A stretch of 54,960 nucleotides of DNA from a virus (IMGVR_UViG_3300020172_002489:1-54960), one strand, 5' to 3'. Shown: positions 33,036-50,193, numbered from the stretch's first letter. Numbers and translations are program-made. The notes: a model not told the origin generated them from the sequence alone.

Positions 33036-33158
33036 ATGATATCATTTACAACAGAAGAATGTAAAAAAATAATTAAATTATCCTTACCACAAAGTTTAGA
33101 ACTTACACATATATGTATTTCAAAAACTACCATATCTAACACTAAAAGTTTACTATGA
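33036..33158 (+). pseudogene. 40-aa ORF, probable internally deleted 2OG-Fe(II) oxygenase remnant
   Basis: MISFTTEECKKIIKL...TKSLL*; its stop overlaps the next start (ATGA). FxxEECxxII is a typical N-terminal motif of these oxygenases. Confidence 0.4.
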
Positions 33159-34644: not shown

Positions 34645-36102
34645 ATGGCTGAAGAAAATATAGAATTTCAGAAAGAAGAAAATAAAAAACTTAAAAAAAC
34701 ATTTGCGGGTGATAATCCATTTTATCTCGGTGTACGAGATGATTTAAATAAAATAGGACCAGGTATGTGTCTAGCAAAATGGACACAAGTAACTATGCAC
34801 TTACAACTCGGTCATACTCACTCATGTCACCACCCAAAAACTCATCCAATTTCACCATCGGAAATTAAAAGAAACCCATCTGCATTACATAACACTGCGT
34901 ATAAAAAACGAAGAAGAAAGGAAATGTTAGAAGGTAGTAGACCTGAAGAGTGTGATTATTGCTGGAATGTAGAAGATAATTCAGACAGATTTTCAGACAG
35001 AACATTCAAATCTTCTGAATCATGGTCTTTACCACATTATAAAGAAATTACCGAATTAAATTGGAGAGCCGATTACAATCCAAAATATGTAGAGGTTGCA
35101 TTCTCAAATGCTTGTAATTTTAAATGTTCTTATTGTGGCCCTGCTTTTTCTACTAAATGGATGGAAGAGATAGAAAAACATGGTGCATATCCTACAACTG
35201 ATCGATTTAATGATACTCGATATTTAGAAGAGGAAAATAAAAAACCATTTAAACAAACTGAATATAATCCTTATGTTGAGGCCTTTTGGAAATGGTGGCC
35301 TGATTTATATAAAGATTTACACACTTTTAGAATTACTGGTGGAGAACCTCTAATGTCAAAAGATACTTGGGATGTATTGGATTATATTATTGATAATCCT
35401 AATCCTAATAGAGGATTGAATTTAGCAATTAATTCAAATCTCGGTGTTCCTGATAAACTAATTGATAAGTTTATTGAAAAGATAAAAAGAATAACTGAAG
35501 AAAATCGAGTAAATGAATTTATAGTGTTTACATCATGTGATACATGGGGAGACCAAGCAGAATACATTAGAAATGGGTTAGTGTTTAATCAATTTTGGGA
35601 CAATGTAAACAAATTAATGAGCAATTGTCCAAGAGTTAATTTAACTTTTATGTCTACATATAATGCATTGTCAGTTCCAAACTACGATAAACTTATAGAA
35701 GGAGTATATCAACTTAAAAAAGATTACGGGTCAACTGATAGATATTGGGCATCTGCTGTATTTTTAGATACATCTTATTTGAGATATCCAACCCATCAGA
35801 CGGTACAAGTATTACCACAATCTTGGACAGAAAATATATTTAAACAAGCCCAACTTGCAGATTTTCTTTCTGTGCCTCTTTTTGAAAACAAATACATTGG
35901 GTATTCTGATATAGAAATTCAAAAAATCAAAAGAACATACGATTGGATGAAATCGGTAAAACAAGATGAAGAACTACTTAGAAAACAATATAATTTTGGT
36001 AAGTATTTCCAAGCACACGATGATAGACGAGGAACTAATTTTAAAAAAGTATTTCCTGAATTAGCAGAATTTTTTGAATGGACAAAAACAATTAATATAT
36101 GA
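34645..36102 (+). CDS. Radical SAM protein with N-terminal Twitch/SPASM-like domain
   Basis: CNFKCSYC and ITGGEP; N-terminal CLAKW...SCHH...CDYCW. Confidence 0.88.
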   Translation: MAEENIEFQKEENKKLKKTFAGDNPFYLGVRDDLNKIGPGMCLAKWTQVTMHLQLGHTHSCHHPKTHPISPSEIKRNPSALHNTAYKKRRRKEMLEGSRPEECDYCWNVEDNSDRFSDRTFKSSESWSLPHYKEITELNWRADYNPKYVEVAFSNACNFKCSYCGPAFSTKWMEEIEKHGAYPTTDRFNDTRYLEEENKKPFKQTEYNPYVEAFWKWWPDLYKDLHTFRITGGEPLMSKDTWDVLDYIIDNPNPNRGLNLAINSNLGVPDKLIDKFIEKIKRITEENRVNEFIVFTSCDTWGDQAEYIRNGLVFNQFWDNVNKLMSNCPRVNLTFMSTYNALSVPNYDKLIEGVYQLKKDYGSTDRYWASAVFLDTSYLRYPTHQTVQVLPQSWTENIFKQAQLADFLSVPLFENKYIGYSDIEIQKIKRTYDWMKSVKQDEELLRKQYNFGKYFQAHDDRRGTNFKKVFPELAEFFEWTKTINI

Positions 36103-36833
36103 GTAGTTTAAAATTTGAAGGTAATAATGCTTGGTTTGTAACTCCCGATAACAAATACGGATTAAGTAAATTTCCAATGAAAAACATAACCGAAAATGAT
36201 TTTTCTTTTTTAACATCTATACGAGTAAATTGGGATAAAATGAATCCAAATAATAATACACGAGAAGGTGGAGTTATTATAAAAAATGGATTACATTTAG
36301 GTTTGAGTGTAATTAAACCAGATAACGAGCATGTGTATATTAAAGGAACTATATGGACAATGGATGCGAGTTTAGGTTCAAATGCAATGAAAAATTATGA
36401 TATACTTGTAAAAGTTAATTGGGAAGATGGTGATTTGGATAAAGAATATAAAGTAGGATTTTCTTTTAAAAGAAAAGAAAAAGAATTTTCTGTATATTGT
36501 AATGGAACGTGGTTGACTGAAAAGTTTGAGGGGTCTTTAATTGATTATTCAAACGCTTGGTTATGGGTAGGAGCATCAAATCCATTAGAGAGTTGTCCAG
36601 AAGATTTTAGACAATTTTTTAATGGAGAAATGTATTATGCAGCTATTTTTTCAAAATTTTTAGATAGAAGTGAAATTGAAGAAATTTATAACGAACCCGA
36701 TGATGTATCTAAAAGATTGAAACCAACTTGTATTTTTAATTTTAAAAGACAAACTCCTTATAAAATATTAGATATATCGGAAGTAGGAAATAATTTAATT
36801 AGATTTGATAAAGAATGGATGGATTCGATTTAA
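36099..36833 (+). CDS. Stand-alone LamG/ConA-like domain protein
   Basis: SLKFEG, LWVGA, FNGEMYYAAIFSKFL and DISEVGN, resembling the inserts in the GT7 genes. Confidence 0.65.
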   Translation: MSSLKFEGNNAWFVTPDNKYGLSKFPMKNITENDFSFLTSIRVNWDKMNPNNNTREGGVIIKNGLHLGLSVIKPDNEHVYIKGTIWTMDASLGSNAMKNYDILVKVNWEDGDLDKEYKVGFSFKRKEKEFSVYCNGTWLTEKFEGSLIDYSNAWLWVGASNPLESCPEDFRQFFNGEMYYAAIFSKFLDRSEIEEIYNEPDDVSKRLKPTCIFNFKRQTPYKILDISEVGNNLIRFDKEWMDSI

Positions 36834-38251
36834 ATAAAATTCCAAAAACTTATTTTGTTTTAGAATTTAAAGGACCAGGTGGATATATTCCATTGGGGTA
36901 TACAAAATATACCTTACCTATTATGATGCAATATAAATTTAAAAATACAAAAGATGCAGATTTTACAGCATATCACGCATCTACATCAGAACCTGTAAAA
37001 TATTATTACAATAGGACTGCTGAATTTTCAAATCATGTGGTAAACCATACAAAAAATACTCAATTTGTGTTGACAAAGGATATTAAAAATAATATAAAAT
37101 CGCATAGTTTATATTTGGTAGTTCTTGAAAGTTTAAATGTTAATAATATGTTTGAATATTATTCATCGGATAAATTTAAAATGGAAGATTTTTTTTCGCC
37201 CGATTTATTGAATTTGATAAAAAATAATGTTAATTTTAAAATAGTTTTTATTGATGCAGGTGAAGGAGCTTACATGCATACTATGAGTTTGTTAGAAAAA
37301 ATACATTCCTTTTTAAAGAGAAATAATATAAATCATAAAAATAAAGTTTTCATATCTACCAATAATAACAATATAGTAGATTTAAAAAAAACAAATAGAT
37401 TTTTAAAATTTGAAAATCAAATTGATGTATTCCCAAATAATCATCTAATTACTGTTGCAGGAAAATTTATGAGTGATTTACGAGCAGGTATAAAAGTAGT
37501 CCAAGATGATGACGGTTATGATTATTCAATTCAAGATAAATTAAAATTTAATAAAAAAGAAAAAAAATTTTTAATGTATAATCGAAATTCCGAAAGAATA
37601 CACAGAGCATATTTTGTGAATTTGTTATACAAAAATAATTTATTAAATAAGGGATATGTATCTTTTTTAGAAAATCCAGATTTTGTAGATTTTTTATATA
37701 AAGACAAAGATTATCCCGAATTATTTTTAAGTGAATTGGATATTTTAGATATTCGTAATAACTACAAAAATTATTACCCATTAGTAATTGATGATTCTAA
37801 TGCTGATAGAGTATCTATATATCATAATTTTTTGAGTAGAAGAGACGAATATGAGAATTCATATTTTACAATAATATCAGAAACAAACGCTCAAACTTCT
37901 TATTCATTCCTAACAGAAAAAACAATAAAACCAATAATGAATCTACATCCATTTGTAGTATTAGGTAATCCAAACACATTGGATGTATTAAAATCATTTG
38001 GATTTAAAACTTTTGATAGATGGTGGGATGAATCGTATGATAGTGTTAAAAATTTTAAAGATAGAGCAAATAAATTATTAGATTTAGTAAATTTTTTATG
38101 TGAAAAAAGTGATGATGAGTGGATTTTAATGTTACAAGAAATGGAAGATATATTAATACATAATCAAAAATTACTACATAAATTATCTACTAATAAAATA
38201 GAAATTAAAAAATTTTTTAAAAAAATGTTAGAACAAACTCCATTAATATGA
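36815..38251 (+). CDS. Putative glycosyltransferase (GT10-like TEK family), paralog 2
   Basis: FLMYNR...HR, IISET, FLTEKTIKPI, PFVVLG and GFKTFDRWWDESYD. Confidence 0.55.
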   Translation: MDGFDLNKIPKTYFVLEFKGPGGYIPLGYTKYTLPIMMQYKFKNTKDADFTAYHASTSEPVKYYYNRTAEFSNHVVNHTKNTQFVLTKDIKNNIKSHSLYLVVLESLNVNNMFEYYSSDKFKMEDFFSPDLLNLIKNNVNFKIVFIDAGEGAYMHTMSLLEKIHSFLKRNNINHKNKVFISTNNNNIVDLKKTNRFLKFENQIDVFPNNHLITVAGKFMSDLRAGIKVVQDDDGYDYSIQDKLKFNKKEKKFLMYNRNSERIHRAYFVNLLYKNNLLNKGYVSFLENPDFVDFLYKDKDYPELFLSELDILDIRNNYKNYYPLVIDDSNADRVSIYHNFLSRRDEYENSYFTIISETNAQTSYSFLTEKTIKPIMNLHPFVVLGNPNTLDVLKSFGFKTFDRWWDESYDSVKNFKDRANKLLDLVNFLCEKSDDEWILMLQEMEDILIHNQKLLHKLSTNKIEIKKFFKKMLEQTPLI

Positions 38252-39216
38252 AACAAATTTTAATTACCGGAGGTGCAGGATACCTTGGTTCGGTTTTGGT
38301 AGATAGATTATTAAGTAGTGGTTATGAAGTAACTGTATTAGATAATTTGATGTATAATCAGACATCACTAATTCATTATTCTTATAATAAGAATTTCCAT
38401 TTTATTTATGGGGATGTCAGAGATACTACTTTACTAAAAAAACTTGTACCACTATTCAACATGGTTATTCCACTTGCAGCAATTGTAGGATTTCCTGCTT
38501 GTGATAGAGATAAAGTTCTTGCAACTGCAGTAAATTATCAACACGTTAAAGAAATATGTGATTTAGTTCGTGGTACAAATATAAAAGTAGTATATCCAAA
38601 CACAAATAGTGGGTACGGGATAGGAGAGAATGGTGAGTGTACTGAAGAAAGTCCACTTAACCCAATTTCCCACTATGGGGTAACCAAAGTACTTGCCGAG
38701 AGAGAGATATTGGCAGTAGGTGGCATTTCGGTAAGACTTGCCACCGTCTTTGGTTCATCTCCAAGAATGAGAATGGATTTATTAGTAAATGAATTTGTTT
38801 ACAAAGCATTAACTGATAAATACATTACTATTTTCGAGAAAAATTTTAAAAGAAATTATATTCACATTCGAGATGTTGCAAAAACTTTCCAATATATGTT
38901 GGAAAATTATCAAAAATTCTCGGGTGAAGTATTTAATGTAGGGCTAACATCTGCAAATTTAACAAAAGCTCAATTAGTAGAAAAAATCAAAGAATATGTT
39001 CCCGATTTTGCAATCACATATTCTGATTTTTATCAAGACCCCGATAAGAGAGATTACTTGGTTTCAAATGCCAAAATCGAATCTACTGGTTGGTCACCTG
39101 ATTGGAGTTTGGATGATGGTATCGAAGAACTTATCAAAACTTATACAATTTTAATACAAGATTTATCATCAAAATATAGGAATGGATTTCCTTTAGGTTA
39201 TGGGATTAGGACGTAG
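38248..39216 (+). CDS. NAD-dependent epimerase/dehydratase (extended SDR)
   Basis: ITGGAGYLG, YGVTK and RNYIHIRDVA. Confidence 0.9.
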   Translation: MKQILITGGAGYLGSVLVDRLLSSGYEVTVLDNLMYNQTSLIHYSYNKNFHFIYGDVRDTTLLKKLVPLFNMVIPLAAIVGFPACDRDKVLATAVNYQHVKEICDLVRGTNIKVVYPNTNSGYGIGENGECTEESPLNPISHYGVTKVLAEREILAVGGISVRLATVFGSSPRMRMDLLVNEFVYKALTDKYITIFEKNFKRNYIHIRDVAKTFQYMLENYQKFSGEVFNVGLTSANLTKAQLVEKIKEYVPDFAITYSDFYQDPDKRDYLVSNAKIESTGWSPDWSLDDGIEELIKTYTILIQDLSSKYRNGFPLGYGIRT

Positions 39217-39784
39217 TTTATTTTATAAAGAAAGAAGTTGGAATGATTTCCACTTTTATAATGGTTCGGTTTTACCACAAGTAAAAATCGTACAACCATC
39301 GATTTATCACGAAATTCGTGGTTCAATATCAACAACTTATCATTCAGATTATTACGATAGATTGTTGCCTGCTGCAGAAAGAAACGAAGGTCTTTCATTT
39401 AAACATGATAGATACTCCAAATCTAAAAAAGGTGTTCTTCGAGGATTACATTGGGATGAAAAAACTTGGAAAATGGTTTCGTGTCCACATGGTAGAATTT
39501 ATTTAGTAGTTTTGGATGTAAGAGAAAAAACTCCTGATTTTGGTAAATGGGAAACATTTATTCTCTCACCTGAAACTGGGACTCAAGTTTTAGTTCCACC
39601 TTATTTTGCCAATGGTCATTTTGTAATGGAAGATGATTCTATTTTTTCATATAAAATGGCGTATGAAGGTGAATATAATGATGAAAATAAACAACATACT
39701 ATTGTGTGGAACGATTCAAGATTTAATATAGATTGGCCAACTGATAATCCAATCTTATCTAAACGAGACAAATATGGAAATTAA
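39200..39784 (+). CDS. rmlC: dTDP-4-dehydrorhamnose 3,5-epimerase family
   Basis: SKKGVLRGLH, KMVSCPHGRIY..LDVR, PPYFANGH and IDWP...S.RD. Confidence 0.85.
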   Translation: MGLGRSLFYKERSWNDFHFYNGSVLPQVKIVQPSIYHEIRGSISTTYHSDYYDRLLPAAERNEGLSFKHDRYSKSKKGVLRGLHWDEKTWKMVSCPHGRIYLVVLDVREKTPDFGKWETFILSPETGTQVLVPPYFANGHFVMEDDSIFSYKMAYEGEYNDENKQHTIVWNDSRFNIDWPTDNPILSKRDKYGN

Positions 39785-40412
39785 AAATTTAGAGTATCAC
39801 GAGACTCGTTGGTTGGGAAGTAATTGGAATAAGGAAGAACTTATTCATTTTGAAGATGATATTATTTCTCATTGGGAAAAGGGAGAAATAAAAGGACCTA
39901 TTCATTTATCAAATGGAAATGAAGAACAACTCATTGAAGTATTCAAAAAAATATCACCAACTGATTGGGTATTTTCAACTTGGAGGTCACACTATCATGC
40001 ACTTCTTCATGGAGTTAAACCACGAAAATTAAAAGAAAAAATTCTTGATGGTAAATCAATAACAATTATTGATAAAGAATCTAATTTCTATTCATCTGCT
40101 ATTGTCACTGGAACTTTACCTATTGCATTAGGAGTTGCAAAATCATTAAAAATGAAAGGAAGTGACGAGAAGGTTTGGTGTTTTATTGGTGATATGAGTT
40201 TTGAAACTGGTTTCTTTTATGAAGTACATAAATATGCCAGAAACTTTGATTTACCTTTATATTTTGTAGTTGAAGATAATGAAGTATCGACAAATACCCC
40301 AACATTGGATACATGGGGTGGTATTCAACGAGAAATACCAAATGATGTAATCTATTATAAGTATAAATCTAAATACCCACATTATGGGACAGGAAAATGG
40401 GTAGTGTTTTAA
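39774..40412 (+). CDS. TPP-dependent E1-alpha-like subunit (short)
   Basis: HLSNGNE, STWRSH, and TPP motif GDMSFETG...VVEDN. Confidence 0.85.
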   Translation: MEIKNLEYHETRWLGSNWNKEELIHFEDDIISHWEKGEIKGPIHLSNGNEEQLIEVFKKISPTDWVFSTWRSHYHALLHGVKPRKLKEKILDGKSITIIDKESNFYSSAIVTGTLPIALGVAKSLKMKGSDEKVWCFIGDMSFETGFFYEVHKYARNFDLPLYFVVEDNEVSTNTPTLDTWGGIQREIPNDVIYYKYKSKYPHYGTGKWVVF

Positions 40413-41518
40413 ACTTTATAATACAAGATGAAAATAGTTATGGAAACTGGTCTTTTCAGGGTCCAATAATTCAAAAAGTTATGAATGAATATTCATACAC
40501 TATTTTTCCAGAAGTTAAAAAAGATTGTAAAAATTATTTATTAATTGAACCAACTGAATCTTATTTCGGTTTAGTAAAAAGAATTGATGCTATTTTAAGA
40601 AAAATAGATATTAAAAAATTCATAGAAAAAAATAATGTAAAAATATTATTATCTTCTATGGCTGACCCCCCAACTTTTTCGAATTATAAACAATTATCTA
40701 TAAAATTAAAAAAACATAAAATTTTAGATAGATGTTTATTTTTAACTAGTAATATTAATTTACAAGGAAATAATATTAAATCATATCATTTTTTTATTGA
40801 ACAGGCAATTAAATCCAAAGATTCATTTTTTGGAGTAGATACTTGTTTAGGATATAAAAGTGAAGAAATACAAATCAATGAATTAGATAATTTTAGAAAC
40901 AAAAAGTTTTTATCATTTAATAGAACTGTTGATAAAGAACATAGATTTTCATTATTTCATGATTATTTAACAAATAATTTTACTGATTCGTATTTTAGTT
41001 TTTTGACATTAGAAGGAATACATTGTCCACCTTTTCAAGATAATCAACTAACACTTGAACAATATTTAGAAAAAATACCTATTGAATTGGATACTAATAA
41101 AAAATTTAATTTTAGTGTAAGTAATACTATGCGAAAAGATTTATTTTTAGATTCTTGTATTAATTTAGTCACAGAAACTTCTTATAATAATAATGAATTA
41201 TTTTTATCAGAAAAAATTTTAAAGCCTATTTTAAATTATCAACCTTTTATCGTCTTAGGTCCAGTAAATTATCTAAAAGAATTAAAAAAATTAGGATTTA
41301 AAACATTTTCTGATTTTTGGGATGAATCTTATGATAATATAGAAGAAGGAAGAGATAGATATTTTAAAGTTTCTGAACTAATAATAAACTTAAATTCATT
41401 TGATATTAATAAACTAAATAATTTATACCAAGAAACAAAAAAAATTTGTATATATAATAAGAATCATTTTAATGAACTTAAAATGGATGGTATAAGTTTA
41501 TTTTTTGACAAATTATAA
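40397..41518 (+). CDS. Putative glycosyltransferase (GT10-like SEK family), paralog 3
   Basis: FLSFNR...HR, LVTET, FLSEKILKPI and GFKTFSDFWDESYD. Confidence 0.55.
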   Translation: MGSVLNFIIQDENSYGNWSFQGPIIQKVMNEYSYTIFPEVKKDCKNYLLIEPTESYFGLVKRIDAILRKIDIKKFIEKNNVKILLSSMADPPTFSNYKQLSIKLKKHKILDRCLFLTSNINLQGNNIKSYHFFIEQAIKSKDSFFGVDTCLGYKSEEIQINELDNFRNKKFLSFNRTVDKEHRFSLFHDYLTNNFTDSYFSFLTLEGIHCPPFQDNQLTLEQYLEKIPIELDTNKKFNFSVSNTMRKDLFLDSCINLVTETSYNNNELFLSEKILKPILNYQPFIVLGPVNYLKELKKLGFKTFSDFWDESYDNIEEGRDRYFKVSELIINLNSFDINKLNNLYQETKKICIYNKNHFNELKMDGISLFFDKL

Positions 41519-41519
41519 T

Positions 41520-42626
41520 ATGAAACATAATGAAGATATACTTAAAAAGTATGTTTGTATTCAACCGTTTAAACACATAGAGTTTTTTGAAGACCATGCA
41601 ACCATGTGTTGTCCAACTTGGTTGGAGACAAAATTGTGGTATGGTAAAAACGAAGATGGTTCACTTAATTATGATGTTTGGAAATCTGAAACTGCAAATA
41701 AAATTAGAGAATCTATTTTAGATGGTTCATATTCACATTGTGATAAAACAGCATGTCCTCATTTAAGTACATTAATACATACTAAACAACCAAGTGGATT
41801 TTTTATAAAAAAAGAAAAATTACCATTTAAAATGTATGATGGTTTTGTTATAGATGATAAAAAAGTAAGTTCTGGTCCTGGGTCTATAAATTTTACATAT
41901 GATGATAGTTGTAATCTAAAATGCCCATCATGTAGATTACACGTTATAATGGCAAAACCTGACCAAATTATAAAAATTGATAATATCACCGATTTTATTA
42001 AAAACAATTATTCAAAAGAGGCTAGAAAACTTGCTATTACTGGCAGTGGAGACCCTTGGGCTTCAAAATCATTTAGAAAATTTTTATTTGAGTTTGACCC
42101 AAAAGTATGGCCAAACTTAGATGATATATACCTAACCACAAACGCAAATTTATTTACTGAAAAAAATTGGAAAAAAATAGAAAAGGCTCATCCGTATGTA
42201 AAATCAGTAGAAATATCAATAGATGCTGCTACAAAAAATACTTACGAAAATAAAACAAGAATAGGTGGGAACTGGGAAGTCTTAATGGAAAATTTAGATT
42301 TTATCAGTACTATACCGACCATACAAAATTTAAGATGCTCATTCGTTACTCAATTGGATAATTATACAGAAATGCGAGAGTTTGCAGAACTTATTTATAA
42401 GAAATTTGAAAAAAGAATTCAAACTCAAGGTTATTCTGAAGCAACACTTGTTTATTTTGGTAAAATTTATCAATGGACACACATGGATTATGAATCATTT
42501 AAACAAAAAGCAATTTGGACTGAAGACCACCCTGAATATAAAAAATTTGTAGATGAAGTAAATAGATTGTATGAATTCGATAAAATTTTCATCCAGTCAA
42601 ACTTTACTGATTTATTAAGAAAATAA
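41520..42626 (+). CDS. Radical SAM protein with N-terminal SPASM/Twitch-like domain
   Basis: CIQPF...MCCP...CDKTACP; CNLKCPSC; GSGDP; SIDAA. ATG 41520 is preferred over TTG 41505. Confidence 0.85.
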   Translation: MKHNEDILKKYVCIQPFKHIEFFEDHATMCCPTWLETKLWYGKNEDGSLNYDVWKSETANKIRESILDGSYSHCDKTACPHLSTLIHTKQPSGFFIKKEKLPFKMYDGFVIDDKKVSSGPGSINFTYDDSCNLKCPSCRLHVIMAKPDQIIKIDNITDFIKNNYSKEARKLAITGSGDPWASKSFRKFLFEFDPKVWPNLDDIYLTTNANLFTEKNWKKIEKAHPYVKSVEISIDAATKNTYENKTRIGGNWEVLMENLDFISTIPTIQNLRCSFVTQLDNYTEMREFAELIYKKFEKRIQTQGYSEATLVYFGKIYQWTHMDYESFKQKAIWTEDHPEYKKFVDEVNRLYEFDKIFIQSNFTDLLRK

Positions 42627-42636
42627 ACTTATTATA

Positions 42637-42648
42637 TATATTTATATA
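42637..42648 (+). promoter_or_regulatory. TATATTTATATA putative phage promoter motif
   Basis: Intergenic; upstream of ATG 42660. Confidence 0.6.
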
Positions 42649-42659
42649 AAACAAACGAC

Positions 42660-43628
42660 ATGCAAAACAAAAAGGTTTTAATAACAGGTGCCAATGGATT
42701 AGTTGGCAACTACATGGTTCAAAAGTGCATTGATAGAGGTGCATTTGTAACAGCGGTTGATATTCATGAACCAAAAAATCAATTAGAAAAATACGCAACA
42801 TCCGGCCAATATCAGTTTATCAAGGCCGATTTAAGAGAATTTTTAAATTGTAAAAAAGTAGTTGAAGGACAAGATATTGTTTTTCATATTGCAGGTGTAA
42901 AGGGTTCTCCAAAAAGAGCAGCAGAACAACCTGCAGATTATTTTGTACCAATGTTACAATTTAATACCAATATGATGGAAGCTGCAAGGTTGGAAGATGT
43001 GGAGTGGTATGTTTATACATCAACGGTTGGCGTTTATCAACCAGCAGAAGTATTCTTTGAGGACGATGTATGGAAGACATTCCCATCGGAAAAAGATAAG
43101 TACGCAGGATGGGCAAAAAGATTAGGTGAACTTCAAGCAGAGGTATATTCAGTATCTTACGATTGGAATAACGCATCAATTGTAAGACCGGCAAACATTT
43201 ATGGTAGACATGACAATTTTGGTCCTGAATCGACTGTCATTGCATCCCTGATTAAAAGATTGTTTGGTGAAAAAGAACACCCACTTGTTTGTTGGGGAGA
43301 TGGTTCTCCAATTAGAGATTTTATCTACGCAGGAGATGTTGCAGATGGAATTATTAAAGCATACGAACAAAAACTAACACACCCAATTAACTTGGGTAGT
43401 GGAACTGGTGTAACTATTAAAGAACTTGCTGAAACTCTTGTAGAAATTTACGAAGAAATGTATGGAGTAAAAGTTCAAATCGAATGGGACCCGTCTAAAC
43501 CGAACGGAGATACAAAGAGATTGATGAGTACTGAAAGAGCAGAATCATTTGGTATTAAACAACAAGTATCGCTCAAAGAAGGATTAAAAGAAACAATAGA
43601 TTATTATTTAAACGAATATAACAAATAA
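42660..43628 (+). CDS. GDP-L-fucose-synthase-like NAD(P)-dependent epimerase/reductase
   Basis: ITGANGLVG, RPANIYG and WGDGSPIRDFIY. Confidence 0.85.
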   Translation: MQNKKVLITGANGLVGNYMVQKCIDRGAFVTAVDIHEPKNQLEKYATSGQYQFIKADLREFLNCKKVVEGQDIVFHIAGVKGSPKRAAEQPADYFVPMLQFNTNMMEAARLEDVEWYVYTSTVGVYQPAEVFFEDDVWKTFPSEKDKYAGWAKRLGELQAEVYSVSYDWNNASIVRPANIYGRHDNFGPESTVIASLIKRLFGEKEHPLVCWGDGSPIRDFIYAGDVADGIIKAYEQKLTHPINLGSGTGVTIKELAETLVEIYEEMYGVKVQIEWDPSKPNGDTKRLMSTERAESFGIKQQVSLKEGLKETIDYYLNEYNK

Positions 43629-43631
43629 GTT

Positions 43632-44624
43632 ATGAAAAAAACAGACAAGATTTTAGTTACGGGTGCAAGTGGATTCATTGGTTCACATTTATTGAGATTA
43701 CTTTGGGAAAAAGGTTATAAAAATCTTCGTGCAACCTCATTCAGTAGAGATTTAAGAGGTGATTTTGAAGGTTGGGAAAATGTACAACATTTCGAAGGTG
43801 ATTTACAAACAAAGTTTTTTTGTGAAAATGTAACAAAGGATGTTGATGTAGTTTTTCATTGTGCAGCGAATACTTCAAATGCATTAGATACGAAAGAAAA
43901 TCCACTTTTGCATGTTACTCCAAATGTTGAAATGAATGTAAATTTGATGGAACAATCTTGGAGAAATGGGGTTAAAAAATTCTTATTTATTTCTTCTAAT
44001 ACAGTTTATCCTGATATGAAGGATGAGTTTTGTACTGAAGATTTAAATATTCATGCAACTCCAACTTTTCCAATCTATGGTGCAGTTGGTAATATGAAAA
44101 GATATGGTGAATTGTTGTGTGATTATTTTTCACACCAAATTCACAATCCAATGCAATGTTTGATTGTTAGACCTTCAAATGCTTTCGGTCCAAACGATAA
44201 ATTTGATTTTGAAAAATGTCATGTTACTCCTGCAAACATTAGAAAAGTAGCAGATGGATTGAATCCAATTCCAGTTTGGGGTGATGGAAGTGAAGTACGA
44301 GATTTACTTTATGTTGAAGATATGGCAGATGGATTTATTTGGGTTGCTGAAAACAACGATACTTACAATATTTTTAATGTTGCTTACGGTGAAGGATTTA
44401 GTGTAAATGAAGTGTTGGGTTGGATTAAAGAAATCGAACAAAATGATAACCCAATCGAATATGTAAACAATAAGGCACCAATGATTCCCGTTCGTTTACT
44501 TTCTTCAAAGAAAATCAATGCAGCAGGTTGGAAACCAAAACGAGATTTGAAACAAGCACTCAAAGAAACTCTTGAGTGGTATAAAGCAAACAAACATCAA
44601 TATAATCCAAATTCAAGACCATAA
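43632..44624 (+). CDS. GDP-L-fucose-synthase-like NAD(P)-dependent epimerase/reductase (second)
   Basis: VTGASGFIG, RPSNAFGPND and WGDGSEVRDLLY. Confidence 0.85.
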   Translation: MKKTDKILVTGASGFIGSHLLRLLWEKGYKNLRATSFSRDLRGDFEGWENVQHFEGDLQTKFFCENVTKDVDVVFHCAANTSNALDTKENPLLHVTPNVEMNVNLMEQSWRNGVKKFLFISSNTVYPDMKDEFCTEDLNIHATPTFPIYGAVGNMKRYGELLCDYFSHQIHNPMQCLIVRPSNAFGPNDKFDFEKCHVTPANIRKVADGLNPIPVWGDGSEVRDLLYVEDMADGFIWVAENNDTYNIFNVAYGEGFSVNEVLGWIKEIEQNDNPIEYVNNKAPMIPVRLLSSKKINAAGWKPKRDLKQALKETLEWYKANKHQYNPNSRP

Positions 44625-45172
44625 TGAGTACACCACAATTTACTCCTTATTTAGATGCATTAACCGAATCAATGAAATTGTGTATGGAAGACCCATCCAC
44701 AATTTTTATTGGCCAACAAATCGTGTATTATGGAAACCCGATGTCAAAAACAATTGAAGGTTTACCAAAAGAACGAATGATTGAAACTCCGGTCATGGAA
44801 GAAACTCAAATGGGAATGAGTATTGGATTAGCAATGACAGGACATAGAGTAGTATCATTTTATCCAAGATGGGATTTTCTTATTTGTGCATCAAATCAAT
44901 TAATAAATCACTTGGATAAACTTGAAGCAATGTCAGATGGGGAATTTATCCCAAATGTAATTATCAGAGTTGGTAAAGGTTCCGATAAACCACTTGACCC
45001 AGGTCATCAACATAAGTCAGATTATTCAGATGAGTTTTCCTCAATGTTAAAACATATACCAATTATAAAATTGGATTCTGCTGATAAAATTCTACCTGCA
45101 TATAAAAAAGCATTATCATCAAATGGACCAATTATTTTAGTGGAATATCCTGAATTGTATTATGAAAATTAA
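44624..45172 (+). CDS. TPP-dependent E1-beta-like subunit (pyrimidine-binding domain only)
   Basis: IETPVMEETQMGMSIGLA, NQLIN and PGHQH; 182 aa. Confidence 0.85.
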   Translation: MSTPQFTPYLDALTESMKLCMEDPSTIFIGQQIVYYGNPMSKTIEGLPKERMIETPVMEETQMGMSIGLAMTGHRVVSFYPRWDFLICASNQLINHLDKLEAMSDGEFIPNVIIRVGKGSDKPLDPGHQHKSDYSDEFSSMLKHIPIIKLDSADKILPAYKKALSSNGPIILVEYPELYYEN

Positions 45173-46628
45173 AAGATTATTTGATGTAGTAGGGCCCTCT
45201 GGTTTTATACCCACTGGTTGGAATTGGAATTTTACTGATGATATTTGGAACAATAATTTTGTTATTGACCATAATTTTATAGAAACTTTTAATTCAAAAT
45301 ATGTTCAAGTACCTGTGTATGAGTGTAATTTAAATTTACCACTTCACTTAAATGATTTACATATTTCGGAAGTAAGATATGATGAAGATGAAAAAATTCT
45401 TGAAAATTCGTTAGAAAAATCATTATTTTTGATGACAGTACATCCTTATGGTAGTATTGATACTTGCACTGGTAAAAATACAAATTACCATGAAAATACA
45501 CATTCATTTGATTTTATATCTGAGATAGCTAAAAATTATTTAAGAAATGCTACTAATTTTTATTTAGTTATGGATTATAGTAGTGAAGGTGATATAAGGA
45601 ATTCTTTATTTGAAAATTTACATAAAAAATGTAAAGAGTTAAATATATCACCAAAGAAAGTTATAGTAATATCAGCATCGATGAATACTCGTGACATTTA
45701 TGAAGAATATTTAAAAAATAATCCAGAATCACAACAATTTTATACAGCTTATTATTGTTGGTCAGTAACTTCCAAGAAAAAAGAAACCGAACATCTTTTA
45801 AGTAGAGATTCTGTTTTTGAATTTAATGGAAATTCAAACGAATGTTCTTTAATGAATTTAGATGAATTAAAAAATTCAAAAAATAAATCAAAAAAATGTT
45901 TAATATACAATAGAAGAGTTGCACCACATAGAGTAATTATTTTAAGTTTATTACATACTGATGGATTAATCAAAAAATGTGATTATTCTATTGATTTAAA
46001 TTTATGGGATTATGGTCTTGATGATATGGGATTGGAATTAGCAAATGGAACTGATTACGATGGTGTTTCATATATTCAAGATAAACAATATAAATCTAAA
46101 ATGATTGGTGGTTATTTTAAATTAAGCAAACATCCAAAAAACACAATTGATTATGATAATATAGATAAAGTTTGGGGATTTGGATTTGAACAAAAAGAAC
46201 CATATTTAAATACATATTTTAGTTTAATAACCGAAACATTATTTTACGAACATGGTCACTATATTTCAGAAAAATCATTTAAAGGTATTGCTCATTTACA
46301 TCCATTTGTAATATTAGGTAAGCCTGGTATAATAAAACAACTACAAAAATGGGGATTTAAAACTTTTTCAGATTTTTGGGATGAATCATATGATACTATA
46401 CAAAATAATTCTGAAAGAATAATTAAAGTGTATGAGATAGTTAAATCATTGATAGAAAAAACAAATGAAGAATGGGATGAAATGTATGAAAAGTTATACC
46501 CAATATTAGAACATAACAGAAACCATTTACTTTCGATGAGTGAAGAATATATTTCAGATACTTATGTTTATAACCTTAATAAATTATTAGAAAATGAACC
46601 CAATCAAGAAAATTATAGCTTATTTTAA
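45162..46628 (+). CDS. Putative glycosyltransferase (GT10-like SEK family), paralog 4
   Basis: LIYNRR...HR, LITET, YISEKSFKGI and GFKTFSDFWDESYD. Confidence 0.55.
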   Translation: MKIKRLFDVVGPSGFIPTGWNWNFTDDIWNNNFVIDHNFIETFNSKYVQVPVYECNLNLPLHLNDLHISEVRYDEDEKILENSLEKSLFLMTVHPYGSIDTCTGKNTNYHENTHSFDFISEIAKNYLRNATNFYLVMDYSSEGDIRNSLFENLHKKCKELNISPKKVIVISASMNTRDIYEEYLKNNPESQQFYTAYYCWSVTSKKKETEHLLSRDSVFEFNGNSNECSLMNLDELKNSKNKSKKCLIYNRRVAPHRVIILSLLHTDGLIKKCDYSIDLNLWDYGLDDMGLELANGTDYDGVSYIQDKQYKSKMIGGYFKLSKHPKNTIDYDNIDKVWGFGFEQKEPYLNTYFSLITETLFYEHGHYISEKSFKGIAHLHPFVILGKPGIIKQLQKWGFKTFSDFWDESYDTIQNNSERIIKVYEIVKSLIEKTNEEWDEMYEKLYPILEHNRNHLLSMSEEYISDTYVYNLNKLLENEPNQENYSLF

Positions 46629-46747: not shown

Positions 46748-46767
46748 CTGATAAGGTGTATCTTTTT

Positions 46768-49700
46768 ATGAATGAACTTTCAAAATATCTAGTAGAACAA
46801 ATATTACTTGAGGAACCTACCCCCATAAAGAAAACTGTTGTAGTTTATGTGGGTAGGTTTCAACCTTTCCATAAAGGTCATTATGGAACTTACTCACACT
46901 TGGTTAAAAAGTTTGGTAAGGATAATGTCTATATTGGTACATCCAATAAAGTAGAAAGACCAAAATCCCCATTTAACTTTAAGGAAAAGAAACAAATCAT
47001 GACCACGATGTTTGATGTACCATCAAACAAAATATTCGAGGTCAAGAATCCTTATGCCCCACTAGAAATTCTAAAAAAGTTTGATGAAAAAACTACTGCC
47101 TTCATAACCGTAGTTGGTGAAAAAGATGCAAGTAGATTGGGTGGTAAATATTTCCAAAAATGGAATGGAGAAGCAACCGAAGGGTATAAAGATAGAGGAT
47201 ATGTTTATGCTTCACCAATGCAAGGTGATTCAGTTTCAGGAACCGAAGTAAGAATTGGTTTAGGTAGTGGAACCGAAGAACAAAAACGAAATTTCTTTTT
47301 AGATAGAGCATATTCAAAGTTTAACAAAACTATATTCAGTTTAATTACCAATAAATTACAAGAATCTTGTATTCGTTTGACAAAAACACAACTTGAAGAT
47401 TTACTCATAGAAGTATCATCTGGTATTGGTCAAGATATGGTTGATGATGGTCCTGTAATTTTCTTACCTGATTATAATTCTTTTAAAGTTATTAATGGTG
47501 AACGTGCTCAGCAAATTGGATGGGAAATAATCAATATGGTTATGGATGATTCAATGGATGATTACATTACATATCCAGAAGGACCTACTGGTAGAGTAAC
47601 ATTCTTTCCTCGTGGTGCAATAGGTAAAAAAGATCCAATGGGTGAATTTGATGTAATGGTAAATGGTGCGTATGATAAATGGTACAAACACGCAACTCGT
47701 ACTGCATCATTAGTTGGTTATTCGGTAGTTGATAAAGCATTGGGGGTTGATGATAAACTTTCAACCGACCTTGCAAAAGGTGCTAGACCACTTGCAAAAG
47801 AATCTGATAAAACAATTCAACGAGAATCAATTACATTACCAGTTGAAATTGGAGATACTCTTTTAATGGGTAAATTCAAAAACAAAAAAGTTGTTGTAAA
47901 AACAATTGGTAAAGATGAGCATGGAATGCCAACAATCAATGGTAAAAAGGTAGTTACTTTTAGATTGATAAAAGAAGGAAAACAAGCAATCTTTGAAGAT
48001 GAAACCGAAGATGCAAAATATACTCATATTGGGTATGGAAAATATAAACAAGTGGGTAAAGAAGAGGATGAAACTGCACCAACTTTTCAAAAAGATGAGA
48101 GTGGAAAATATGTCCAAGTTGCTGATACTACATCAGAACCTCAACAATCTACTCCTCCAAATTCATTAAATTCAAAAACTCAAGCTGGTAAATCTTATCA
48201 ACAACAATTACCAAGTGGAGACCCTGCCAAAAAAGAAAAACCAAAAACACAACCTAAACAAGAACCAAAATCAAATGTAACCACATTTGCTGGGACAAAA
48301 TCCGGTAAAGAAATTCAAACAACCAATCTTGAGGGGGGTGGTAGTGTTTTTGGAACACAACATGGTGATAATAAAATGGTTGATGATATTCTTGATACAG
48401 TAAAATCAACTATACCACAAGAAAGATGGAAAGATGTTGTATTTGTGGGTGAGGGTGGATATGGTAATGAAAATGGAGAATTTGAATTTTCAGGTGAAAT
48501 GGATTACGCCGCCAAAAAATTCCAAAAAATAGGTGCAGGTGTTGATACTTGGGATGGAGATGATACAAATGTATTTGATAATGAATCTCCACTATACAAA
48601 TACCAAGAAGAACAAACTGGATTAAGTAATGAAGAGGTCATGGCTGCAAACTGGGCAAGTATGATAGGACAAGGTGATAGTTTAGAAGATATGTCCCCTG
48701 AAGATTACTTAACCGATAGTGGAAAGGCTTTTTTACAACAATCTGCACAAGAAGCAAATTTACCTTTGTCAGAACAATGGGATTCAAACCCAACTGATGA
48801 AGATATAGATACATTATATAGATTATCATTCGCCGAAGATAATAACGATGTTAAAACCAAAGTAAATGATGCCCAAGAATCGTTTAATAAGTTTAGAGAT
48901 ATAAATTTATTAAGAAAAACACAAGAATTATCCTCTCAAGGTAAAATTCCTATTGTATTAGCCGGAGAATCTCATGTTGGCTTAGTAGATAATATGATGC
49001 AAAACGAGTGGATGGGTTCCGACCCAATTATGATGGAGGCATTGACTCAAGCTCAAAAAGCATCAAGAAGATGGGCGTTTGCAAAAAATAAAAAACTAAT
49101 TAATATCAAAAAACAACGAACACAAATTCGTAAAAAACCATATTCAGTATTATCAAAAAGAGCACATAAACTTGCATATCTTTATGTAAGAAAAGAGTGG
49201 ACTCAAAGATTATTTGGAACCACCCCATACGATGAACTTTCTTTACCACAAAAACAAAGAGTTTCTCAAATGGTCCAAAAGAAAAAAAGAAAAGTTTTGA
49301 AATTGGCTAAGTTTAGATTCTTACCTGCATTGAAACAAAAAGAGGCAGATAGGTTTAAAGGCGTTCATCAGTATCCAAGTAATTTAACTTTTGATACTTC
49401 AACACTAGATGAAGTGAATTCAGGTTTTTACGATGGGGTTAGGGGTTCAATGACTCCCAATGATGCTGCTGGTGCAACTGGATATATGTATAATCATAAT
49501 TGGGAAGAGTATGATACCCAAGAATACTACTTAGCAAACTTACCCGGATTTGAATTAGTTCACGAGATTCCATCTGAATTTGAATTGGAAAGAGCAGTAG
49601 ACCAAGGCATACCATTAATGACACATGGTGATGGAAAAACAACCAAATACAATCGTATACTAAAAGCAGATTTTACAGCACCTGAAGAATTCTCAAAATC

Positions 49701-50193
49701 TAAAAAATCAATTAAGAAAGAATCTAAAATACCTGGTGGATTATCACAAGGTATGAGTTTATCTGATATTGCCAAAAAACACAAAGTTTCTCTTGGAGAT
49801 TTAACTGATGAATTTAAAAAAGGATATAAAGTAGAAAGAGAACACACTACTGATACTGATATTGCAAAAGAAATAGCAATGGACCATCTTTTTGAAGACC
49901 CAAAGTATTATACTAAACTTAAAAAGATAGAAGAAACTATTCAAAAAGTAGATAATAAATGGGTGGTGTATCGTAAGACAGGTGGTGAGAAATTAGGTAC
50001 GCATGAAACTTATGAAGAAGCATTAAAACAACTTCGTGAAATTGAATTGGATAAATTTAAAAACATAAATTCTAAAATTGATGAACTTGCTCCTCATGGT
50101 TATCCTGACCAAGAATGGATGGATAATCACGAAAAGGAAATGAAGAAATTGAGAAAACAATTAGATAAACAACAAAAGGAAACATACAAATGA
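46768..50193 (+). CDS. Large modular protein: N-terminal cytidylyltransferase/NMNAT-like domain plus several small phage modules
   Basis: GRFQPFHKGH (HxGH) and SGTEVR; later modules include a basic helical segment and VEREHT...EIAMDHL.EDPKYY. ATG 46768 is preferred over GTG 46756. Confidence 0.8.
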   Translation: MNELSKYLVEQILLEEPTPIKKTVVVYVGRFQPFHKGHYGTYSHLVKKFGKDNVYIGTSNKVERPKSPFNFKEKKQIMTTMFDVPSNKIFEVKNPYAPLEILKKFDEKTTAFITVVGEKDASRLGGKYFQKWNGEATEGYKDRGYVYASPMQGDSVSGTEVRIGLGSGTEEQKRNFFLDRAYSKFNKTIFSLITNKLQESCIRLTKTQLEDLLIEVSSGIGQDMVDDGPVIFLPDYNSFKVINGERAQQIGWEIINMVMDDSMDDYITYPEGPTGRVTFFPRGAIGKKDPMGEFDVMVNGAYDKWYKHATRTASLVGYSVVDKALGVDDKLSTDLAKGARPLAKESDKTIQRESITLPVEIGDTLLMGKFKNKKVVVKTIGKDEHGMPTINGKKVVTFRLIKEGKQAIFEDETEDAKYTHIGYGKYKQVGKEEDETAPTFQKDESGKYVQVADTTSEPQQSTPPNSLNSKTQAGKSYQQQLPSGDPAKKEKPKTQPKQEPKSNVTTFAGTKSGKEIQTTNLEGGGSVFGTQHGDNKMVDDILDTVKSTIPQERWKDVVFVGEGGYGNENGEFEFSGEMDYAAKKFQKIGAGVDTWDGDDTNVFDNESPLYKYQEEQTGLSNEEVMAANWASMIGQGDSLEDMSPEDYLTDSGKAFLQQSAQEANLPLSEQWDSNPTDEDIDTLYRLSFAEDNNDVKTKVNDAQESFNKFRDINLLRKTQELSSQGKIPIVLAGESHVGLVDNMMQNEWMGSDPIMMEALTQAQKASRRWAFAKNKKLINIKKQRTQIRKKPYSVLSKRAHKLAYLYVRKEWTQRLFGTTPYDELSLPQKQRVSQMVQKKKRKVLKLAKFRFLPALKQKEADRFKGVHQYPSNLTFDTSTLDEVNSGFYDGVRGSMTPNDAAGATGYMYNHNWEEYDTQEYYLANLPGFELVHEIPSEFELERAVDQGIPLMTHGDGKTTKYNRILKADFTAPEEFSKSKKSIKKESKIPGGLSQGMSLSDIAKKHKVSLGDLTDEFKKGYKVEREHTTDTDIAKEIAMDHLFEDPKYYTKLKKIEETIQKVDNKWVVYRKTGGEKLGTHETYEEALKQLREIELDKFKNINSKIDELAPHGYPDQEWMDNHEKEMKKLRKQLDKQQKETYK

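Follow-up and report, generated by a model that had tools for sequence, protein, structure and literature searches.

The viral record IMGVR_UViG_3300020172_002489, analysed over its whole length of 54,960 bases (hereafter the window), encodes within a glycan-biosynthesis island two short proteins, here called alpha and beta, that are related to the E1 component of 2-oxoacid dehydrogenases (Table 1). The best explanation of their sequences is that they are the diphosphate-binding (PP) and pyrimidine-binding (Pyr) halves of a single minimal thiamine diphosphate (ThDP) enzyme that descended from the heterotetrameric 2-oxoacid dehydrogenase E1. We favour, at slightly better than even probability, the reading that this enzyme is a carboligase acting on a guanosine diphosphate (GDP)-4-keto-heptose or -hexose. 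The initial annotation had placed in the region 38248..45172 a phage pathway for a branched-chain deoxysugar, made up of the pair, three short-chain dehydrogenases/reductases (SDRs) and an RmlC protein. The open reading frames (ORFs) were recovered where they had been reported, including a 212-amino-acid (aa) E1-alpha and a 182-aa E1-beta that are both truncated, and the pair is indeed interleaved with three SDRs and an RmlC-fold epimerase; the GT-B-like gene (40397-41518) and the radical-SAM gene (41505-42626) of the same region had been omitted.

Judged by profile comparison, alpha and beta are truncated E1-type halves, because each covers only part of its family profiles and scores below NCBIfam or Pfam cut-offs. 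More specifically, residues 24-176 of alpha match positions 7-168 of the 300 in Pfam E1_dh (57.6 bits), its score on TIGR03182 is 87.8 bits against a cut-off of 393.85, and its sequence match covers residues 60-206 of human pyruvate dehydrogenase (PDH) E1-alpha. Beta aligns with positions 7-177 of the 327 in PRK09212 (54.6 bits, cut-off 321), scores 21.9 bits on Transket_pyr, below the cut-off of 27, and matches residues 18-177 of T. thermophilus E1-beta in the PDB. Alpha has no match to Transketolase_N (PF00456), only one to NF004559 at E 1.7e-4, and a weak TPP_enzyme_C match (23 bits) is accompanied by no TPP_enzyme_N or M domain.

The two halves also occur in nature as one chain. The first half of SSM2_198 from Synechococcus phage S-SM2 (402 aa) resembles alpha (45% identity, E 1e-60) and its second half resembles beta (31% identity, E 1e-26); this protein is annotated as a "transketolase central region-containing protein", and a similar one occurs in Prochlorococcus phage P-TIM68. 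Alpha and beta likewise align with the N- and C-terminal halves, respectively, of phrog_34187, a PHROG of unknown function, and three further relatives (P0130, P0182 and P0252) are natural fusions of about 400 aa that carry E1_dh together with Transket_pyr. These fusions suggest that alpha and beta would assemble with one another.

Relatives of alpha are numerous, with 2,646 cluster representatives at E <= 0.001 and 121 at E <= 1e-30 in a library of 1.84 billion proteins, most of them about 200 aa long. Another collection holds 5,606 relatives at E <= 0.001, and 155 viral contig stretches encode one. A literature search that covered few subscription journals and no supplements found no publication describing the short alpha/beta pair. 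Among the relatives, P0162 carries an N-terminal LAGLIDADG domain, P0197 is fused to an APH-type phosphotransferase (kinase) domain, and a 735,411-bp uncultured phage record (LR756501.1 / LR756503.1) encodes a homolog with 47% identity to alpha over residues 17-212.

It might be supposed that alpha and beta are decayed, non-catalytic E1 remnants kept as scaffolds or pseudo-enzymes, given that the ThDP motif of the window protein reads G-D-M, not G-D-G, and that the Pfam score of beta is below cut-off. The conservation of the family makes this very improbable. Across 39 divergent alpha sequences D140 never varies and G139 and N169 almost never do, the three together making up the ThDP-Mg motif (G139-D140-M ... 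E167-D-N169), and H44, D64, R71 and H203 are invariant as well. In the beta family (20 sequences) E59 and H130 are invariant, as are R82 and others, and comparison with T. thermophilus E1-beta aligns E59 and H130 with E1-beta motifs, at positions that we take to be those of the cofactor-activating glutamate and the active-site histidine. Decay is further opposed by the thousands of relatives in both collections, by confident predicted folds for alpha and the glycosyltransferase-like proteins, and by an intein inside the alpha homolog P0159 (Intein_splicing/Hint after about residue 122), a kind of element usually inserted at sites that matter for function.

The AlphaFold2 model of alpha (pLDDT 91.9) is closest in fold to E1-alpha subunits. 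Against human PDH E1-alpha (1NI4_A) it gives Z 19.5 with a root-mean-square deviation of 2.5 over 197 aligned residues (model 7-212 on chain 20-270), and against the E1-alpha of branched-chain 2-oxoacid dehydrogenase (BCKDH) it gives Z 18.1 (model 1-212 on chain 32-298); scores are lower for DXS (Z 14.4) and for the split transketolase 6YAK (Z 14.3). In PDH E1-alpha numbering alpha ends at about residue 270 of 362, so that by the model its end would lie just past the BCKDH loop carrying His291-alpha, which the titles of 1OLS and 1OLX name, with His146-beta', for the reductive acylation step. The pair thus retains residues for cofactor binding and proton relay and appears to have kept the core for decarboxylation and transfer while losing the C-terminal third of alpha and the entire C-terminal domain of beta, the latter being, we presume, the part that binds or docks E2. 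With both of these parts gone, the enzyme would be unable to work as a PDH.

The genomes point in the same direction. Transketolase_C (PF02780) has no match anywhere in the 54,960-base record, nor do the E2 2-oxoacid_dh (PF00198) and lipoyl (PF00364) domains, and no E3-type match was found among the 42 ORFs of at least 100 aa scanned against Pfam. Because the record represents only about 27% of a genome, absence from the window tells little, and E2 (PF00198) was therefore sought in related phages; it is present in 0 of 5 related records, three of which are 100% complete by CheckV and one of which has terminal repeats. The possibility that the genes are an auxiliary metabolic gene (AMG) for a true PDH, other 2-oxoacid dehydrogenase or acetoin dehydrogenase E1, working with the E2 and E3 of the host, can draw on the label "pyruvate dehydrogenase E1 component alpha subunit" that JGI attaches to relatives, and on PDH and BCKDH E1 being the closest matches in both sequence and fold. 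Fold, ThDP-Mg motif and the glutamate and histidine of beta are indeed common to both. Yet the window pair is without the last third of alpha, the beta C-terminal domain and any E2, E3 or lipoyl partner, the NCBIfam equivalog cut-offs are missed, and alpha lies in a sugar operon in 80 of 80 viral loci. This possibility is accordingly given almost no probability, and the initial annotation was right to state that the pair is not a PDH AMG. A transketolase, including the split type, has a PP domain of the Transketolase_N type and a C-terminal domain, and the window pair possesses neither.

The enzymes encoded around the pair suggest what its substrate might be. Residues 2-302 of SDR1 match PDB 6VO6/6VO8 (E 4e-111, 374.5 bits); we take 6VO6 to be Campylobacter jejuni Cj1427, a GDP-heptose C4-dehydrogenase that leaves the 6-OH in place, a link for which no paper was found. 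The RmlC-fold epimerase gene, whose 3' end overlaps the start of alpha by 11 nucleotides (nt), encodes a protein with best PDB matches to 8DB5, 8DCO, 7M14 and 8DAK (E 1e-43 to 1e-46), entries that are titled as GDP-D-glycero-4-keto-D-lyxo-heptose 3,5- or 3-epimerases. SDR2 scores 131.6 bits on NF047922, under the cut-off, and matches GDP-L-fucose synthases in the PDB at E 5e-26; SDR3 matches 8RDG (E 7e-30), GDP-mannose 3,5-epimerase (8e-26) and GDP-fucose synthase (5e-25). Both match the C. jejuni-type entries (7M13, 7ANC and 7ANH) only in part. The window holds no 4,6-dehydratase, so the sugar probably keeps its 6-OH, and the substrate is likely to be a GDP-heptose or possibly GDP-mannose. 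In this respect the initial annotation has to be revised: its deoxysugar route by way of a nucleoside diphosphate (NDP)-4-keto-6-deoxyhexose lacks the dehydratase that it would need, and has in its place an SDR1 of the 6VO6 type. Its RmlC assignment holds for the fold and fails for the thymidine diphosphate (dTDP) type, matches to dTDP RmlC entries (E 1e-24 to 1e-25) being weaker than those to the GDP-4-keto-heptose epimerases.

Pfam scans of the window found no C. jejuni-type genes for GDP-heptose supply (GmhA, heptose kinase, phosphatase or guanylyltransferase). SIS_2 and GHMP-kinase genes are also absent from the whole genomes of the three complete phage relatives (0 of 3), two of which have an NTP_transferase gene far from the island. 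Thus the precursor must come from the host, and the substrate could be GDP-mannose and not a heptose.

The association of the pair with these enzymes is conserved among related viruses. The comparison drew on 80 loci retained from 155 matching viral stretches, and the genes of the window have homologs in them as follows: alpha in 80, SDR3 in 76, SDR2 in 73, the epimerase in 70, beta in 69, SDR1 in 61 and rSAM1 in 53. In a second count the epimerase gene is present in 69 of these loci, and in 47 it ends between -60 and +100 nt from the start of alpha. Alpha and beta are typically apart in the phage clade (median 4.8 kb), and in each of the 11 loci in which beta is missing the sequence stops no more than about 10.6 kb downstream of alpha. 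Three loci (L071, L069 and the truncated L080) reduce the arrangement to a compact SDR1-epimerase-alpha-beta module with no second SDR nearby. When SDR ORFs are classed by best hit, 57 loci contain the SDR1 type, 7 contain instead an SDR resembling GDP-mannose-4,6-dehydratase (57-62% identical to the SAR11 enzyme), none contains both, and 16 contain neither, with alpha close to the locus end in several of the latter. Around this fixed core the set of tailoring genes is highly variable: among L029-L079 the islands of relatives add carbamoyltransferases (12 loci), 2-oxoglutarate (2OG)-Fe(II) oxygenases (19), B12-binding radical SAM proteins (8), HAD phosphatases (13), PfkB kinases (8) and DegT fragments (7). 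Taken with the cellular loci described below, the linkage bears out the proposal that the pair is an integral and conserved part of a nucleotide-sugar pathway. Since the common denominator within the clade is a 4-keto-forming enzyme, of either type, the acceptor would be a 4-keto sugar, and this linkage is the main basis for regarding a keto sugar as the co-substrate. Two short contigs from GTDB bins labelled Saccharibacteria and Pelagibacterales (L083 and L084) show the phage-type order, either epimerase, alpha and glycosyltransferase-like gene or the whole island, and are probably phage contigs binned with cellular metagenome-assembled genomes.

The short alpha type is also found in 11 of 401 genomes of the SAR11 order (E <= 1.5e-53, open frames of 150-243 aa), and in 26 further genomes of the order the E1-alpha-like genes are all longer, at about 300-355 aa (E 1e-19 to 1e-11). 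The contig G001 C6, which carries a short alpha, clearly comes from a cell, with YidC, SecA, RF-1, GcpE and histidinol dehydrogenase genes followed by a surface-glycan island in which NeuB, DegT and a PseB-like gene occur. In all nine cellular loci beta lies next to alpha, and the two are accompanied in every case by a GHMP kinase and usually by GmhA and GmhB; the dehydratase type is present in 3 of these loci and the SDR1 type in 4, and 2 contigs are too short to tell. Two cellular islands (L086, 1794-5120, and L121, 12010-15355) additionally place a 554-aa YerE-like enzyme of the acetolactate-synthase type alongside a transketolase split into N and C subunits, and thus hold three types of ThDP enzyme in one sugar locus; in L086 the YerE-like protein is a neighbour of the short pair.

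If the favoured reading is correct, the pathway would begin with the oxidation by SDR1 of C4 of a GDP-heptose-type sugar, or possibly of GDP-mannose, after which the RmlC-fold enzyme would epimerise the sugar beside the keto group. The ThDP enzyme would then decarboxylate a 2-oxo acid, and the resulting acyl-anion equivalent would attack the 4-keto sugar as electrophile to give a C4-branched sugar with a tertiary alcohol. The two GDP-fucose-synthase-like SDRs might reduce the carbonyl of the branch, make an unbranched epimer, or both, and the glycan would finally be built by three GT10-like and two GT7-like transferases.

Several observations weigh against this reading or limit its reach. The donor and the product are guesses, pyruvate being the default guess for the former, and, with neither GmhA nor GHMP kinase in the phage relatives, the real substrate could be a hexose nucleotide. 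Locus L047, with full flanks, is without SDR1 and the epimerase. A looser tblastn search flags a dehydratase-like stretch in L051, an SDR1 locus, so that the statement that the two types never occur together is one about best-hit classing of ORFs. In the cellular loci L125 and L126 the pair lies between GmhA and GHMP kinase, a DegT aminotransferase encoded in these loci could itself consume the 4-keto group, and in L126 an E2 gene is found about 8 kb away, at the edge of the island. The fused forms of cyanophages stand amid GmhA, kinase and nucleotidyltransferase genes and beside a Zn-alcohol dehydrogenase, with no homolog of the Cj1427 or RmlC type, so that the 4-keto link is not a feature of the family as a whole. 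On the structural side, the invariant H203 of alpha would by range arithmetic lie near BCKDH His291-alpha, a placement derived from aligned fold ranges and not from residue-level superposition, since hhalign of the short alphas with 18 E1-alpha-like proteins, each about 320 aa long, gave an alignment that was confined to residues 22-188 and fell short of the C-terminal YPHxGxG motif. Lastly, even for full-length E1-like pairs the link to C4-acetyl branches comes solely from genetics or has been proposed (PMC10338323, PMC4425429, PMC4753412).

Some of the same loci could be read as evidence that the carboligase acts early, as a small transketolase or DXS on sugar phosphates, and supplies sedoheptulose-7-phosphate or a longer ketose phosphate to the heptose route of GmhA and kinase, leaving the nucleotide-bound 4-keto sugar alone. 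The order GmhA, alpha, beta, GHMP kinase in L125, the GHMP kinase of all nine cellular loci, the setting of the cyanophage fused forms among GmhA, carbohydrate-kinase and nucleotidyltransferase genes without a C4-dehydrogenase or RmlC homolog, and the kinase domain fused to alpha in P0197 are all consistent with such a role. On the other hand, SAR11-type GmhA, GHMP kinase and GmhB are found in 0 of 80 viral loci, and the complete relatives that have no SIS_2 or GHMP-kinase gene nevertheless retain alpha and beta together with the C4-dehydrogenase and epimerase. The fold of alpha is also nearer to E1-alpha than to split transketolase or DXS, the Transketolase_N match is missing, and the epimerase and alpha genes overlap. 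An early-step enzyme is for these reasons considered unlikely.

Linkage to 4-keto-forming enzymes would be expected equally if ThDP added to the C4 carbonyl of the nucleotide sugar and brought about carbon-carbon cleavage, ring contraction or an acyloin-type rearrangement instead of a simple branch, and the radical-SAM proteins, 2OG oxygenases and carbamoyltransferases of the islands do point to unusual tailoring. The retained E1 residues, in contrast, fit decarboxylation of a 2-oxo acid followed by transfer to an acceptor, and nothing in the data favours rearrangement over branching. We know of no E1-type precedent for the cleavage or rearrangement of a sugar skeleton, and we hold this outcome to be somewhat less probable still than an early-step enzyme. 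Two further roles were considered and rejected. Recycling of the bound NADH of a Cj1427-type dehydrogenase by means of a 2-oxo acid was dismissed because the pair also travels with the 4,6-dehydratase type, an enzyme that regenerates its own cofactor. A phosphonopyruvate or sulfopyruvate decarboxylase was set aside as well; such decarboxylases are of the acetolactate-synthase type, and the Pfam scans gave no match to phosphoenolpyruvate mutase.

Carboligation onto a keto sugar, as favoured here, has parallels in characterized systems. YerE, ErwE and MyGE branch cytidine diphosphate (CDP)-4-keto-3,6-dideoxyglucose on the way to yersiniose and erwiniose, and in vitro they add a decarboxylated 2-oxo acid to the 4-keto sugar or a ketone analogue, with a reductase acting next (PMC9306805). 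The reaction type is the one proposed for the window pair. The proteins are not: enzymes of the YerE type are single acetolactate-synthase-type chains (TPP_enzyme_N/M/C), YerE being a flavoprotein, whereas the window proteins match E1_dh and Transket_pyr.

A closer analogy in ancestry is provided by the pairs AviB1/B2, Pau11/12 and EvdU5/S3, for which a role in attaching the C4 acetyl branch of eurekanate or paulomycose has been proposed (PMC4425429, PMC4753412, PMC10338323). As far as these sources describe them, pairs of the AviB1/AviB2 type share with the window an E1 alpha/beta ancestry, the absence of E2 and E3 and a place in a sugar pathway with a 4-keto-forming enzyme, and their proposed chemistry is, as here, the addition of a ThDP acyl anion to a keto group. 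They differ in that their subunits are full-length (325 aa for Pau11 and 345 aa for Pau12; PMC4425429), compared with 212 and 182 aa and no beta C-terminal domain in the window. They also occur in dTDP- or uridine diphosphate (UDP)-sugar or oligosaccharide contexts of Gram-positive secondary metabolism, in contrast to the GDP-heptose-type setting of phages and SAR11. The analogy drawn in the initial annotation is thus reasonable as to mechanism, and it does not extend to membership of the group.

Supporting this separation, a quick tree of 51 short-family rows and 9 full-length sugar-cluster E1-alpha-like proteins (outgroup cut to about 215 residues; AviB1 and Pau11 not among the rows) divides the short family from the full-length proteins by a branch with 100% SH-aLRT support. 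The 17 IMG/VR phage rows (16 loci and the window) form a group of their own, also at 100%, apart from the cellular SAR11 copies and from the cyanophage fused clade. By sequence, then, the short family is distinct from the full-length E1-like pairs of sugar clusters. Within the SAR11 order itself, 9 of 10 examined loci with E1-alpha-like genes of about 320 aa (L102-L120) have a full-length E1-beta neighbour and 5 have a DegT sugar aminotransferase, with methyltransferases, GT4 or SDR genes elsewhere; these longer pairs look like AviB1/AviB2-type pairs in glycan islands and are not obviously PDH.

For the remainder of the pathway the nearest counterpart is the capsular GDP-heptose system of C. 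jejuni. Like the window it has a C4-dehydrogenase of the SDR1 type (on the assumption made above about 6VO6) and a GDP-4-keto-heptose epimerase, its C4-reductase is GDP-fucose-synthase-like, as are SDR2 and SDR3, whose matches to C. jejuni-type entries are only partial, and it differs in the supply genes, which were missing from the window and, for SIS_2 and GHMP kinase, from the three complete relatives. These activities are those of Cj1427, the C3/C5-epimerase Cj1430 and the C4-reductase Cj1428, in a source whose main text contains the word "thiamine" 0 times (PMC10680097). The genomic setting has been described for the "LPS gene" (lipopolysaccharide) islands of host-recognition clusters in pelagimyophages and cyanomyophages (Zaragoza-Solas et al. 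2020, PMC7029224), in which, as here, a hypervariable block of glycosyltransferase, sugar-nucleotide and radical-SAM genes lies beside tail-fibre genes in aquatic T4-like phages. Neither "pyruvate dehydrogenase" nor "transketolase" occurs in the main text of that paper, and the terminase of the window phage is nearest to those of Mel-JY01 and immuto (55%) and not to those of pelagimyophage-like phages (32%).

A broader and decidedly tentative extension, which we think doubtful as a whole, is that the family constitutes a separate class of minimal ThDP carboligases, in two pieces or fused into about 400 aa, making C-branched or chain-extended GDP-heptoses of at least nine carbons. Large aquatic phages might use these sugars, by means of soluble GT10-like and GT7-lectin transferases, to cover the fibres or capsid of their own virions with a glycan that varies between strains and is so far unreported, and SAR11-type hosts might use the same enzyme for surface glycans. 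Were the proposed activity real, this would be the smallest known E1-type ThDP enzyme, with about 400 residues in total and no multienzyme-complex domains; it would extend GDP-heptose chemistry by a new step that forms a carbon-carbon bond, and a compact ketone-accepting carboligase would be of interest to biocatalysis. The family is abundant, occurring both in large phages of aquatic habitats and in the hypervariable islands for surface glycans of SAR11-order bacteria, and it bears on which unusual sugars occur in plankton and on how phages and hosts vary their surfaces. Annotation is affected as well, in that "pyruvate dehydrogenase E1" labels would wrongly count these genes as central-carbon AMGs.

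Table 1. Features of the glycan island in the window, in order of position (GT, glycosyltransferase; rSAM, radical SAM protein)
Feature	Position	Strand	Details
Methyltransferase (Methyltransf_24), first gene of the island as kept in relatives	29726..30508	+	PF13578, E 2.5e-10
Weakly GT2-like / nucleotidyltransferase-like protein	30496..31347	+	Glyco_tranf_2_4 23.8 bits and NTP_transf_3 18.8 bits, both sub-cut-off
Two paralogous GT7-type (galactosyltransferase-like) transferases with concanavalin/LamG lectin-like domain	31597-33021, 33155-34621	+	
rSAM1, Twitch-domain radical SAM	34645..36102	+	NF033640 N_Twi_rSAM 355.5 bits (cut-off 170)
244-aa protein, unknown family	36099..36833	+	No Pfam, NCBIfam or PHROG match
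GT-B glycosyltransferase-like paralog a, GT10 fucosyltransferase-like	36815..38251	+	Cluster and C-terminal motif as paralog b
SDR1, homolog of NDP-heptose C4-dehydrogenase, 4-keto-forming type	38248..39216	+	322 aa
RmlC-fold 3,5- (or 3-) epimerase, GDP-4-keto-heptose type	39200..39784	+	194 aa
Alpha, putative ThDP diphosphate-binding (PP) half of minimal E1-type enzyme	39774..40412	+	212 aa
GT-B glycosyltransferase-like paralog b, GT10 fucosyltransferase-like	40397..41518	+	373 aa
rSAM2, second radical SAM	41505..42626	+	Radical_SAM 30.5 bits; N_Twi_rSAM 50 bits, sub-cut-off
Promoter-like word TATTTATA	42639..42646	+	14 nt upstream of SDR2 start
SDR2, GDP-fucose-synthase-like reductase or epimerase-reductase	42660..43628	+	322 aa
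SDR3, second GDP-fucose-synthase / GDP-mannose-3,5-epimerase-like SDR	43632..44624	+	330 aa
Beta, putative ThDP pyrimidine-binding (Pyr) half, without C-terminal domain	44624..45172	+	182 aa
GT-B glycosyltransferase-like paralog c	45162..46628	+	Cluster and motif as paralog b
1145-aa protein with N-terminal cytidylyltransferase-like domain and C-terminal DUF5661	46756..50193	+	

The three GT-B paralogs belong to a cluster that is represented in 78 of 86 clustered loci (the 86 including the window and 5 GTDB contigs). For paralog b, the AlphaFold2 model (pLDDT 91.3) has as its best Foldseek matches in the PDB the H. pylori alpha1,3-fucosyltransferase (2NZW/2NZX) and human FUT9, with probability 1.00 and a TM score of only 0.39-0.44 overall and 0.39-0.43 for the H. 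pylori entries, and the Atlas lead to Glyco_transf_10 is at only 0.79-0.80. We take these two reference enzymes to be GT10 members that use GDP-fucose; being GT10 fucosyltransferase-like in their models, the paralogs are thus probably users of GDP-sugars. The GT7-type paralogs match Glyco_transf_7N, 7C and Laminin_G_3 at E 1e-17 to 1e-19, and a concanavalin/LamG lectin-like domain such as theirs is found also within a 1542-aa structural protein of the same record (7985-12613, residues 881-1019). The methyltransferase has a homolog in 18 of the 80 viral loci and rSAM2, which is variable in relatives, in only 4. No PDB sequence match was obtained for rSAM1, nor for the GT2-like protein at E <= 0.1. 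The 1145-aa protein matches CTP_transf_like over residues 30-166 (E 4e-6), DUF5661 (E 1.5e-14) and PHROG cytidyltransferase families, and its role is possibly sugar-activating or structural.

In 19 of the 20 island proteins no 19-residue segment has a mean Kyte-Doolittle hydropathy of 1.6, the exception being a buried core strand of SDR1 (1.96), and the island is without a flippase, polymerase, lipid-carrier transferase or membrane protein. The cellular SAR11-order loci, by contrast, include a Glycos_transf_4 enzyme and a transporter. Because the phage island encodes no membrane protein, its glycan may be more likely to be attached to a soluble phage-made target (virion or fibre proteins) than to a lipid-linked O-antigen, a suggestion that we would put at about even odds.

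The genes from 34645 to 46628 overlap or lie no more than 33 nt apart. Just downstream of rSAM2, the copy of TATTTATA at 42639 may mark the start of a second transcription unit, one that includes beta. On the + strand 10 of the 13 copies of this word in the window fall within the 2,023 nt of intergenic DNA (at 691, 7423, 12645, 14647, 15764, 31357, 42639, 46738, 51448 and 54451), often inside TATATTTATATA. Eight of these ten precede a + strand start codon by at most 60 nt (about 10-28 nt), and the word looks like a phage promoter or leader motif. In the 80 related loci 62 + strand ORFs have it at most 60 nt upstream, among 164 copies in all; no alpha, beta or epimerase gene is among these ORFs, and the word is not conserved there before the SDR, alpha or beta genes. 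The T4-type late promoter TATAAATA was also considered; its 19 matches on both strands compare with 13.75 +/- 4.14 expected, and a count of at least 19 arises in 14 of 100 shuffles, so that it is not enriched. The enrichment lies instead in TATTTATA, the reverse word of TATAAATA, on the coding strand. RNA-library contigs from two runs of one estuary study, 90-99% alike and derived from relatives, fall on SDR1, the epimerase, the 5' part of alpha, SDR2, SDR3 and beta; they give a weak hint that the island is expressed, RNA libraries being capable of holding DNA and such contigs being no proof of transcription.

The record itself is a whole IMG/VR entry with a guanine-plus-cytosine content of about 30% and every large gene on the + strand. 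It derives from a T4-like myovirus, as it encodes gp25, baseplate-J proteins, a SegE endonuclease, a T4-type large terminase, a fused protein of the Mre11/Rad50 type and a fibre of 1912 aa that includes an S74 chaperone domain. For the terminase, identity is 55% with the proteins of Microcystis phage Mel-JY01 and Flavobacterium phage immuto and only 32% with those of Methylophilales and Prochlorococcus myophages, and a DNA-level search of the region against cultured phages gave no match. Near-identical DNA is present in sequencing runs labelled freshwater, lake and estuary and in one study's runs labelled marine plankton. At least half of the sampled words of the stretch were found in 7 runs (8 by the run table) from 5 studies, of which the best holder may be the source sample; two matching contigs from SAR11 single amplified genomes are cellular copies and not the phage of this record. 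Outside the island, the segment 16247-17240 encodes a 190-aa Sulfotransfer_2 protein that matches profile positions 3-252 in only 185 residues, and the 3' end of its gene overlaps the gene for a SegE-type GIY-YIG homing endonuclease (16782-17240).

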